Of a stretch of DNA of 64,000 bases, positions 18,001 through 21,000 are shown piece after piece. Position 1 is the first letter of the stretch. Every line of letters starts with the position of its first letter. The stretch lies in IMG/VR virus record IMGVR_UViG_2939521961_000004. One strand, 5' to 3'. The position numbers are program-made. The stretch comes from a virus (Duplodnaviria > Heunggongvirae > Uroviricota > Caudoviricetes).

Positions 18001-21000
18001 TGCTGAAGTTATTGACGTTCTCCGAAAATACCAAGTTCAAGAAGAGCAATTCGGGAAAGTATGGAATTATCATTGAGCAGATAAGGCTCATATTTCCTCA
18101 TATTAATGGCATCTTCAGTAAACTCCCGGTTACTGAGCAGAACACCAATATCAAAACAACCTTCAGACGTATTAACGTTTGGTAATAACGTTTCCATTAT
18201 CGCGTCCTCAACAATGAATTTTGTGATGCGGTGCCTGGTGCCTCCAGGTGACGTTAACCAGTTAACAATTAACGCCGGATACAGAGAATCCACCCATAAC
18301 ACTGTTTTTGGTTTTAACTGTTCCGCGTGCGCTGAGCCGCATTCACCGCATCACAAAATTCACTTTAAAAAGGGCGGCAGAGCAGCCACGGAGTAAAACT
18401 GATACCGCCAAACGTCACCAGAAAATTGATAACAGAGGGCGTTGCAGCGGGGTTGTCACTTAAGCGTATGGTCAACCTGACAACCCGGTGTCCTCAACTG
18501 GGGAAGGAATAACCCCGCCATACTTACCGCCGCGCCATTTCGCGGATTGCCACAACCGGAAGCGCACGGTCGACGAAAATTTAACGACAGGCTATCTATG
18601 AACCAGCTACCTCGCCGTGCGCTTTCGCGTTATGGTCTGACTTTTCAGGGAAATATCCTTTCAGTAAACTGTCAGTGCCGGATGCTCACCCGTGTCCGGC
18701 GCACGCACTCCACCTCACCCGTGGAGAACTCCTTAATTACCAACCTTAGCTTCGTTGGTTAGCTATTAACGCGGGTATGTAATCATTCTGGCAATGCTTA
18801 ATGCCGCTGCTTTTTCCAGATTGGTGATATCCTGCTCCAGAGCGGACAGATTTTCAGCCTGCTTAGCCCTGGCTTCATTGGCCCATTTCAGGTCCTGCGC
18901 TGCCTTAATTTTCTGGTGCATCCACTCATAAAGTTCATCATCGGTATAGTCTGGCGCGATGATGACGGGTTCTCGTTTCTGCATGTCGGCTCCTTGTGGT
19001 TAGCGCTGCCTGCTTTTAACCACGTCAGGCGAGGTGGTATCCTCTGAGGGGTCTGTTACTCGAGAGGAAATTGGTTATGAATACAATCAAGTTTTCTTGC
19101 CCAGAATGTGGTGGCGAAGTCTTTGACACATCCTTTAAACCGCATGGCTCTGACAGTTTCGCGGGAGCCATCTGCAAAAATTGTGGTCACCTTGTAACTG
19201 AAGATGAGTCCTCGCAGTTTGATGACGAAATCGTTGACAATATCTTCGGTGCACTCACCAGAGACTTTCTGAAGTAAAGGCGCATACCGCTTAGTTACCG
19301 CTCTGATAATTCTTACCTGTCCGGCAATGGCGCTGATATCAATATAAAGCGCCATCGCTGTTTCTTTGCTGATCCCTGGATGCCTTCCATTCTGATGTTT
19401 GACTTCGCCCACTGAGAAATCCTCTGTTTCCCCTTAACGCCGGGGTAGCGGAACAAAAAACCTGCTGCATAGTTAAACGTAATCCCCGCCGTCATGTTCA
19501 TACGCCTCAGGCTGGCTACTTAACCCCTGACCACTGCCGGGTAACTCGAAGTATTGCCCTGCGTTCTGTGGGGCGGGGTGGGTTTATGGATACAATTTAC
19601 AAATTAAAATTTAACTGGTCAACATGTTTATTATTAAATTTGTAATTGCGGGCTGTTGCATCAGTCCCAAAATGGGACTACTATACAGTTATGAAGATTA
19701 TCTCAGTTAAAACACTCAGGGATTTTTGGGCGGAGAATCCTGATGCAGAACAACCGCTAAGGGCATGGGTGGATGAGGCGGCAAAAGCTGACTGGAAAAG
19801 CCCAGCAGACATTAAGGCACAATACCGAACGGCCAGTATATTGAAAAACCGGCGCGTGGTATTCAACATAAAAGGTAATCATTACCGTTTAATTGTTGCA
19901 ATTGCGTATCAGCGAGGATGGGTATTTGTTAAATTCATCGGAAACCACAAGGAATACGATGCTATTGATGCTGATACCATCGAACTGGAGTAAGCATGAA
20001 CATCAAACCTATTCGTACAGAGCAAGATTATGAAGCCGCGTTGCGTGCTGTTGAACCCATGTTCGACAATGAGCCCGAAATTGACACGCCTGAGGGGGAT
20101 TTTTTTGAGGTGATGTGTTTGCTAATAGAGGAATATGAAAAAAAACATTATCCCATTGAGCCACCATCCCCAATTGAAGCTATAAGATTTCGCATGGAAC
20201 AGCAGGGGCTGACTGTGAAAGATTTGGAACCCGCAATTGGGAAAAAAAATCGGGTTTATGAGGTGTTGAATGGTACCAGAAGCCTTACGTTACCAATGAT
20301 TCGCCGTCTTCATAATCAATTTGGTATCCCCCTGGAAAGCCTGGTTGGATTATAAAATCTGCTAGTCATTTGCCTGATGCTCGTTCCAGAAAAGGAATGC
20401 ATCAGGCAGTTTTGTTTTTCTGCCGCAGTAACTCTTCAAGTTTCCGTTTATAGAAATCGCGTTTTTGCTCCATATCACGAATGATCTGCTCTGCGTCGCT
20501 TTGAGGTAACTCATCTAAAAGCGATATGATTTTTCGTTGTTGTTCTGTAAGTTGCGGTTGGTTGTCATTACTGGATACAGCCATTTTATCGCCGAGAGTT
20601 TCTTCTTCCATAAAGAACCAATGGACGGGATGTTGTGAGAGCTCTGCTAATTTTTCCAGTTTATCCATTCTTGGCATCACGCCTTTCAACCAACCTTGCA
20701 CGGATTGGGGTTTTACACCAAGACGTCTTCCCAGCTCTGACTGGTTTATATTCAATTCCTGCAACACCTGCTGAAGGCGTTTTACAAAGATCATCACCAC
20801 CCCTCGTAAACTAGTTCCGCGATCCTACAGAAAAAATTGATAAGTGGCATTACAAATAGAAGTTGAAATTTAAATTTAAATTTGTAATTATCGGTGTCAT
20901 CGTAAAGTTCGGAGGGAAACATGCAAAAAAGTACTCAAGTGAAAATCCTGTCAATAATGAGCCAATCAGAATTAGGGCGTCGTCTTGGTAAAACACCGCA

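Follow-up and report, generated by a model that had tools for sequence, protein, structure and literature searches.

A probable self-regulated HigB-HigA toxin–antitoxin operon in the immunity cassette of a Rac/Qin/CP-933P-type lambdoid prophage

The viral record IMGVR_UViG_2939521961_000004 of the IMG/VR database (class Caudoviricetes), of which a stretch of 64,000 nucleotides was analyzed here (the window), carries two genes, higB and higA, located between a putative left operator (OL) and the repressor gene of a lambdoid prophage. Our results indicate that these genes probably constitute a functional and autonomous toxin–antitoxin (TA) operon of the kind described in Escherichia coli K-12, which regulates its own expression, produces the toxin from a leaderless mRNA and has addiction as its most likely role. 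The evidence comprises the homology of both proteins to HigB and HigA, the intactness of the genes and the purifying selection acting on them, the conservation of an operator and a promoter, the co-variation of the operator with the recognition helix of HigA, and the linkage of the module to one particular phage repressor. The placement of the pair between OL and the repressor gene, on the strand opposite to both this gene and the leftward operon, had been proposed in a preliminary description based on the sequence of the window, and the coordinates and strands established in this study (Table 1) agree with it.

HigB and HigA proteins

HigB was matched by the Pfam profile PF09907 over its entire length (positions 1-74 of 74; E 4.8e-33; 113.7 bits, with a cut-off of 27), and both proteins could be aligned, essentially over their full length, with the K-12 HigB and HigA chains of known structure (PDB 5ifg, 5ycl and 6kml). 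The matches to chains of 5ifg and 5ycl covered residues 1-93 of HigB (E 3e-7) and residues 6-112 of HigA (E 3e-9). The HTH_3 domain of HigA, a helix-turn-helix (HTH) domain detected with Pfam, is C-terminal (residues 63-115); the protein ends four residues later, and its recognition helix is N85-R86-V87-Y88. Matches were obtained in Pfam, PADLOC, PHROGs and PDB; the NCBIfam search returned no model for either HigB or HigA. The homology to HigBA, which had been assumed in the preliminary description, is therefore supported by alignment.

Both open reading frames (ORFs) are intact and are arranged as a bicistronic operon with the toxin gene first, in which the higB stop codon (19991-19993) is separated by 2 nt from the higA ATG (19996) on the same strand. 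Nine residues of HigB (F58, N59, G62, N63, R66, H86, E88, Y89 and D90) are invariant in seven homologues of 27-90% identity, including K-12 HigB; these residues, all of which are retained, form a putative catalytic set. Within the prophage lineage, the ratio of nonsynonymous to synonymous substitutions (dN/dS) was 0.04-0.11 for higB and 0.02-0.04 for higA, at a synonymous divergence of 0.08-0.33. When the plasmid relatives were compared, synonymous sites were saturated and the proteins were still 81-94% identical. The low dN/dS values, together with the intact ORFs, indicate that strong purifying selection acts on the module and that it does not represent a remnant.

The operator of HigA

The region upstream of higB contains a perfect 17-bp palindrome (AGTCCCAAAATGGGACT; core GTCCC-N5-GGGAC), which is unique in the window (0.16 matches with up to three mismatches are expected from shuffling). 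It had been reported to end 12 bp upstream of the higB ATG, which we confirmed: 11 nt (ACTATACAGTT) lie between the palindrome and the ATG at 19691.

The conservation of this sequence was analyzed at two levels: (i) within the lineage, using 11 different sequences of the region upstream of higB in IMG/VR prophage contigs which share this cassette, and (ii) within the family, using 79 loci (78 from a genome scan over many phyla, plus the window; approximately 130 related loci were compared overall). Among the 11 lineage variants, the operator arms GTCCC/GGGAC were invariant at 10 of 10 positions and the central bases at two of five; the 10-nt gap between OL2 (the partial second operator copy in Table 1) and the −35 hexamer of higB was almost completely variable, with a single conserved position. 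At the family level, 41 of the 79 loci, distributed over many phyla, contain the motif CCC-N5-GGG in the 45 nt preceding higB (0.4 expected by shuffling), and the identical 17-mer was found in Thauera and Kerstersia.

The half-site of the palindrome varies together with the HigA recognition helix. Of the 27 loci whose helix is of the NRVY type (residues N85-Y88 in the window), 25 have a (G/A)TCCC half-site, and helices of the xRVS or xKVS type are paired with TTCCC, CTCCC or ATCCC, which is the kind of co-variation that a reader and its operator would be predicted to display. Moreover, the half-sites accompany higBA in places where this phage repressor is absent, namely on P1-like phage-plasmids (L025 group), on an IncFII plasmid (L037) and on contig L038, each of which has two operator copies, one upstream of the −35 hexamer and one in the spacer. 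These comparative data (conservation, recurrence in the family and co-variation with the helix) strongly support the view that the palindrome is the HigA operator of this family; at the sequence level, they are consistent with the autoregulation by HigA that had been suggested for it. Additional HigA-type sites, which would hint at the control of phage genes, were sought across the whole window, but only matches with one mismatch, at chance level, were found in repeated tail genes.

Transcription and translation of higBA

The palindrome fills the spacer of a promoter-like sequence (PhigB), whose −10 hexamer ends 6 nt before the higB ATG. Among the lineage variants, only TTGnnT and TAnnAT are conserved in the two hexamers. 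In the family, the arrangement TTG-N-TAnnnT with a −10 hexamer ending 5-8 nt before the start codon was identified in 33 of 79 loci (1.4 by chance), the most common distance being 6 nt, as in the window. With this spacing, the first transcribed nucleotide should be A19691 or one adjacent to it, and a leaderless higB mRNA is therefore predicted.

The preliminary description had also pointed out that almost no space is left upstream of higB for a Shine-Dalgarno (SD) sequence. None of the motifs GGAG, GAGG and AGGA occurs in the 11 nt between the palindrome and the higB ATG, and a leaderless mRNA appears to be the best explanation for this. In the family, SD-like motifs precede higB in only seven of 79 loci (5.9 by chance), and GGAG or GAGG precedes higA in 55 of 84, i.e. 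in nearly all of the loci outside Bacteroidota; in the window, the SD of higA lies inside the last codons of higB. It seems rather likely that combining a toxin gene without a leader and an antitoxin gene preceded by an SD is the general answer of PF09907-type HigBA operons to the toxin-first order. No description of leaderless higB was found in the searchable literature. A TTG codon at 19646, which would give a HigB of 115 aa, was considered as an alternative start and was rejected, as the homologues are aligned from M1 (19691) onwards and the 45 nt upstream are not conserved as coding sequence.

Downstream of higA, beginning within 16 nt of its end, we identified a hairpin (−23.5 kcal/mol; z −3.7) followed by a T-run, GTTTTGTTTTT, which is present only on the plus strand. 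This structure was revealed by folding, the terminator scan having missed it because the loop exceeds the limit of that scan. The hairpin overlaps the stop codon (20402-20404) of the convergent repressor gene, which places the end of the higBA transcript inside the end of that gene. For the repressor transcript itself no terminator is obvious, and it may continue into higA in the antisense direction.

Alternative immunity cassettes

Region 19400-20900 of the window (1.5 kb) is 100% identical to part of the chromosome of E. coli O26:H11 strain 11368, and the identical region is also present in many non-O157 enterohaemorrhagic E. coli (EHEC) strains (serogroups O26, O103, O111, O45 and O121); in total, it was detected in 148 of 5,426 complete E. 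coli genomes. In strain 11368 it is located within a lambdoid prophage of the Rac/Qin/CP-933P type, whose genes are arranged in the order frameshifted integrase, exonuclease, dicB, ydfC, a small zinc-ribbon gene, higB, higA, the HTH repressor, a YdaS-type regulator, a YdaT-type protein and replication genes. YdaS and YdaT are analogues of Cro and CII, respectively (PMC8630535).

Comparison with prophage Sp12 of strain Sakai (= CP-933P) revealed that window positions 15271-19584 share 92% nucleotide identity with this element. The homology stops at 19584 and resumes weakly at 21167, in ydaT, and the Sp12 segment that has been replaced contains PL933P, parE2, paaA2, paaR2, OR and ydaS. The paaA2-parE2 pair, embedded in the immunity region of CP-933P, is addictive and was proposed to limit rearrangements in this region (Jurenas et al. 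2021; PMC8630535). Thus, one backbone is found with two alternative immunity cassettes, each with a type II TA pair between the repressor gene and PL.

The higBA genes were always found together with this repressor: in 148 of 148 E. coli genomes, all of the copies being chromosomal, and in the 23 IMG/VR loci that contain both genes (L003-L024 and L039). In the latter, the repressor is 92-100% identical, the cro-like gene product 83-100% and the YdaT-like protein 30-100%, and the left flank varies. The module would thus be a fixed part of one allele of the Rac/Qin/CP-933P-like lambdoid immunity cassette. When region 19400-20900 was compared by megablast with phage records, a match was obtained only for the left 185 bp, the cassette being absent from these records at high identity.

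The 185-bp segment situated to the left of the junction (19400-19585) is present in more than 3,000 of the 5,426 E. coli genomes, often in multiple copies, and in several coliphages. It represents the beginning of the leftward operon, is highly conserved and may serve as an anchor for recombination when immunity cassettes are exchanged.

Copies of higA were also observed without a complete module. Full-length orphan copies (90-94% identical) lacking higB occur in L031-L036 and L050, where they immediately follow another small HTH antitoxin-like gene (MKQATRKPTTVGDILLYEYLEPL...), and nine other loci (L040-L048) retain only the N-terminal, toxin-binding half of HigA (residues 1-65; 86% identical). 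Such genes could be anti-addiction or decoy antitoxins, or remnants of recombination.

Proposed mechanism and role of the module

From the above data we infer the start of transcription, the binding of HigA, the toxicity of HigB and the biological role of the module, and these can be combined as follows. The transcription of higBA would be initiated at its own sigma-70 promoter (TTGCAT-17-TACTAT), which would be shut by a HigA dimer, alone or with HigB, bound to GTCCC-N5-GGGAC in the spacer. The higB message would be leaderless and poorly translated, and higA would be translated from its own GGAG; the weak translation of the former and the SD-driven translation of the latter would ensure an excess of antitoxin despite the toxin-first order. 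The transcript would end at the hairpin and T-run, in the last codons of the convergent repressor gene. If the cassette or the whole prophage were lost or exchanged by recombination, the labile HigA would be lost and HigB would arrest the cell. Another possible effect of the module is to abort an infection when this shuts off host expression.

Several observations weigh against this scheme. The hexamers of PhigB are weak (7 of 12 matches) and fall below the threshold of the promoter scan, which did not call them. The closest enterobacterial relatives have two operators and the window has one, and the correlation between half-site and recognition helix is confounded by phylogeny. The P1-like relatives, which are the closest ones outside prophages, have a leader 22 nt longer with a good SD, and K-12 higB also has a leader, so that leaderless expression is not obligatory in the family. 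Finally, the present evidence does not separate addiction from defence, and two related systems, namely HigBAC (found in this slot) and PD-lambda-2, are proven defences.

If higBA were an inert or decaying passenger, for instance because HigB is not toxic or because the module is silenced in the lysogen, this would be in keeping with the weak hexamers and with the defective appearance of the host prophage, whose integrase is frameshifted in O26:H11 strain 11368. However, both ORFs are intact and every family-invariant residue is kept, dN/dS does not exceed 0.11 (0.02-0.11) at a synonymous divergence of 0.08-0.33, and the positions of promoter and operator are conserved while neighbouring bases drift, all of which makes a passenger very improbable. 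The palindrome itself might alternatively be regarded as a third operator of the phage repressor (OL3), being only 18 bp away from OL2, or as an element of the early region acting as an RNA hairpin or a terminator, as its 7-bp stem and 3-nt loop could form in RNA transcribed from upstream. We consider this extremely unlikely, since the palindrome bears no similarity to the 18-mer of OL and OR, is not followed by a T-run, stands at a fixed distance from the −10 hexamer and the ATG, has a half-site which tracks the HigA helix, and travels with higBA on plasmids and in the genomes of many phyla that lack this repressor. A further alternative is a primary function in abortive infection or exclusion, as a functional counterpart of RexAB. 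A superinfecting phage would shut off host transcription or trigger the loss of the antitoxin, and the freed HigB would destroy mRNA on the ribosome. The position of the module is in line with this, as the cI-to-N slot is a recognized defence hotspot (PMC8585504), in which a HigB-family TA-chaperone system (TAC) defends against lambda-vir and Bas25 (bioRxiv 10.1101/2024.02.24.581848) and BP-4795, H-19B and other Shiga toxin (Stx) phages carry a three-gene module of this type; furthermore, HigB matches component A of the PADLOC system PD-Lambda-2, and HigA the first 119 positions of component B. On the other hand, the parts responsible for phage sensing in such systems (the chaperone-addiction extension, ChAD, the SecB-like gene, the M78 domain and the third gene) are absent, and the nearest relatives are found in the context of plasmid maintenance, which leaves exclusion a possible but less probable primary function.

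Addiction which stabilizes the immunity cassette or the prophage is, in our opinion, the most likely role of higBA. It is favoured by the plasmid and phage-plasmid relatives, the precedent of Sp12, the strict linkage to one repressor allele and the lack of a dedicated phage sensor. The exclusion function implied by the slot is not the best-supported one, as the module lacks the sensing parts of its relatives with proven defence activity; abortive defence by generic decay of the antitoxin after host shut-off is nevertheless possible and compatible with addiction. A further idea concerns the lysogenic switch. OL2 stands where the plasmid relatives have their upstream second HigA operator, 10 bp from the higB −35 hexamer and inside an A/T-rich, UP-like stretch. 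This position, and the 3′-overlapping convergence with the repressor gene, suggest that repressor occupancy and read-through from PRM could tune HigBA, making it a guardian that reports the loss of immunity; we regard such wiring into the switch as rather doubtful.

Other features of the prophage

Table 1. Genes and putative regulatory sites in and around the higBA-containing immunity cassette of the window.
Feature	Position	Strand	Characteristics
DicF small RNA	18372-18423	−	Rfam RF00039, 75 bits; between ydfC and dicB
ydfC	18766-18984	−	leftward gene
Left mosaic junction of the immunity cassette	19585		Sp12 homology stops at 19584
PL-like leftward promoter	19594-19622	−	TTGACC-17-TAAATT; consensus scan
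OL1, putative 18-bp phage-repressor operator	19597-19614		TTACAAATTAAAATTTAA; overlaps −10 and spacer of PL
OL2, partial inverted operator copy	19634-19645		TTAAATTTGTAA; inverted repeat, 10 bp upstream of higB −35
PhigB, putative promoter	19656-19684	+	−35 TTGCAT (19656-19661), 17-bp spacer, −10 TACTAT (19679-19684); read from sequence
Palindrome, candidate HigA operator	19663-19679		AGTCCCAAAATGGGACT; core GTCCC-N5-GGGAC; in promoter spacer
higB	19691-19993	+	100 aa, intact ORF; predicted ribosome-dependent mRNA interferase toxin, PF09907 family
Shine-Dalgarno sequence of higA	19987-19990	+	GGAG; inside last higB codons
higA	19996-20355	+	119 aa, intact ORF; antitoxin with C-terminal HTH_3
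Putative intrinsic terminator of higBA	20371-20420	+	hairpin 20371-20408, then GTTTTGTTTTT; inverted repeat, folding
DicA-like HTH repressor (CI analogue)	20402-20794	−	alternative GTG at 20800; convergent with higBA
OR, two inverted operator copies	20850-20887		between repressor and cro-like genes; promoter-like sites in both directions
YdaS-type Cro analogue	20921-21181	+	right end of cassette

In terms of sequence, the OL that had been postulated does exist. The 18-mer TTACAAATTAAAATTTAA of OL1, which overlaps a leftward promoter-like site, has a second copy, inverted and with one mismatch, at OR (20870-20887), and no further copy is present in the window (0.02 expected). Among the prophage variants, 17 of the 18 positions of OL1 are invariant, and nine of the 12 positions of OL2 (TTAAATTTGTAA) and five of the six positions of the PL-like −35 hexamer are conserved; the whole PL/OL-like region spans 19594-19648. 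The location of DicF fixes the leftward early operon, in which dicB, like the other leftward genes, is encoded on the minus strand, and confirms that a dicB operon of the Qin-like type lies under the PL-like promoter.

Within this operon, and antisense to PL transcription, there is a gene (19077-19277, plus strand) for a 66-aa zinc-ribbon protein with a CxxC...CxxC motif. This gene of the ECs_2282 family is kept in Sp12, and only part of the IMG/VR variants possess it. The prophage carries a second type II TA pair in a nin-like region, encoded by 27917-28216 and 28222-28479 (both on the minus strand); the RefSeq annotation describes a toxin of the RelE/ParE family and a ParD antitoxin. A motif search also revealed two identical 15-mers more than 52 kb apart (9600-9614 and 62027-62041); this repeated sequence is probably derived from duplicated tail-region genes of prophages. 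Directly upstream of the integrase gene of the prophage described here, strain 11368 has the tail end of another lambdoid prophage (gpJ, lom and tail-fibre genes) as well as effector genes (for an EspF-repeat protein and an EspV fragment).

Comparison with known systems

The gene family, the principle of autoregulation and the use of this slot for TA or defence cargo are already documented. What is added by the present analysis is the operator-reader co-variation, the leaderless/SD pairing and the occurrence of addiction modules specific to a cassette. A two-gene, self-regulated and oppositely oriented module would be a third kind of TA cargo for the lambdoid repressor-to-PL slot, besides paaA2-parE2 and HigBAC. 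The finding that alternative immunity cassettes on one EHEC backbone would each bring an addiction module lends support to the notion that such modules guard immunity regions against being replaced. In addition, the operator, its reader helix and the joint occurrence of leaderless toxin genes and SD-led antitoxin genes recur across phyla, which offers a simple, testable rule for antitoxin excess in toxin-first operons.

In relation to rexAB of lambda, higBA resembles these genes only in its position between OL/PL and the repressor gene and in expression in the lysogen. The sequences are unrelated; rexAB is transcribed together with cI and acts by membrane depolarization, not by mRNA cleavage.

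PD-lambda-2 contains a HigB of the same family as its component A, to which HigB of the window was matched with E 1e-40. Component B of this system, itself the toxic part, is composed of a HigA-like HTH domain fused to an ImmA/IrrE-type M78 peptidase; the system depends on this M78 domain, and gene C, the third component, is likewise required for defence (Vassallo et al. 2022; PMC9519451). The alignment of HigA of the window with the PD-Lambda-2_B profile (402 positions) was confined to positions 1-119, and no match to Peptidase_M78 was obtained for it in Pfam; it is followed by no third co-directional gene, but by the terminator hairpin and the convergent repressor gene. Membership in PD-lambda-2 was rejected for the lack of the M78 domain and of gene C. 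The complete architecture was observed in an IMG/VR contig (L049, 3699-5227), where a HigB of 44% identity is followed by a 412-aa HigA-HTH-Peptidase_M78 protein matching the full PD-Lambda-2_B profile (1e-141); in this locus a −10 hexamer, TATCTT, preceded by the consensus TTGACA, ends 6 nt before the higB ATG.

The HigBAC system (Mets et al.; bioRxiv 10.1101/2024.02.24.581848) is situated downstream of the gene for the repressor cI, where lambda has rexAB, and aborts infection by lambda-vir and Bas25, its SecB-like chaperone sensing the tail protein gpV. With paaA2-parE2 (PMC8630535), it documents the use of the slot by exclusion or TA genes; the preliminary description had drawn attention to exclusion and abortive-infection genes at this position. 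HigBAC shares with the module of the window the combination of a HigB-family toxin and a HigA-like HTH antitoxin between cI and N, and CCC-N5-GGG palindromes upstream; it differs in having three genes co-directional with cI, an antitoxin with a C-terminal ChAD extension, and the chaperone. The 119-aa HigA of the window has no such extension, ending four residues after HTH_3, and no SecB-like gene is present in the cassette (19585-21181); on these grounds, membership in HigBAC-type TAC systems was also rejected.

Three genes co-directional with cI are likewise found between cI and N in BP-4795, H-19B and many Stx phages. ORF22 of BP-4795 is a HigB-family toxin (42% identical), and is followed by a 218-aa HigA-like protein and by the SecB-like ORF20 (PD-T4-9_C, 3e-11); two TTCCC-N5-GGGAA palindromes, flanking a TATAAT sequence, are located upstream. 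This module (L002; NC_004813.1, 4001-5342), which also occurs in H-19B (AF034975.3) and in more than 20 records of Stx1a and Stx2a phages, many of which are unannotated under the match, fits a HigBAC TAC, although HigB of E. coli NT1F31 from the HigBAC paper could not be confirmed to be a protein of the BP-4795 type.

The paaR2-paaA2-parE2 genes of CP-933P/Sp12 share with higBA the prophage backbone, the location of a type II TA pair between the CI analogue and PL, and the YdaS/YdaT-type region. In contrast to HigB, their toxin is ParE2, and the antitoxin has no DNA-binding domain. Furthermore, paaA2-parE2 is co-transcribed with and regulated by the repressor gene, whereas higBA lies on the opposite strand with its own putative promoter, operator and terminator and a DNA-binding antitoxin.

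The nearest relatives of the module, with approximately 90% and 81% HigB identity, occur on P1-like phage-plasmids and on an IncFII plasmid. The K-12 system (HigB-HigA, or YgjN-YgjM) differs from that of the window in that its HigB is only about 27% identical, its half-site is TTGCCA instead of GTCCCA, and its two operators (GTTGCCA-ATC-TGGCAAC and a degenerate copy) flank the −10 hexamer of a promoter which gives a leader of approximately 30 nt; moreover, it is chromosomal and is not part of a prophage immunity cassette. Nevertheless, both protein families are shared over their full length, as are the toxin-first order, the C-terminal HTH domain of the antitoxin and the 17-bp palindromic operators of 7-N3-7 geometry with a CCA-N3-TGG core.

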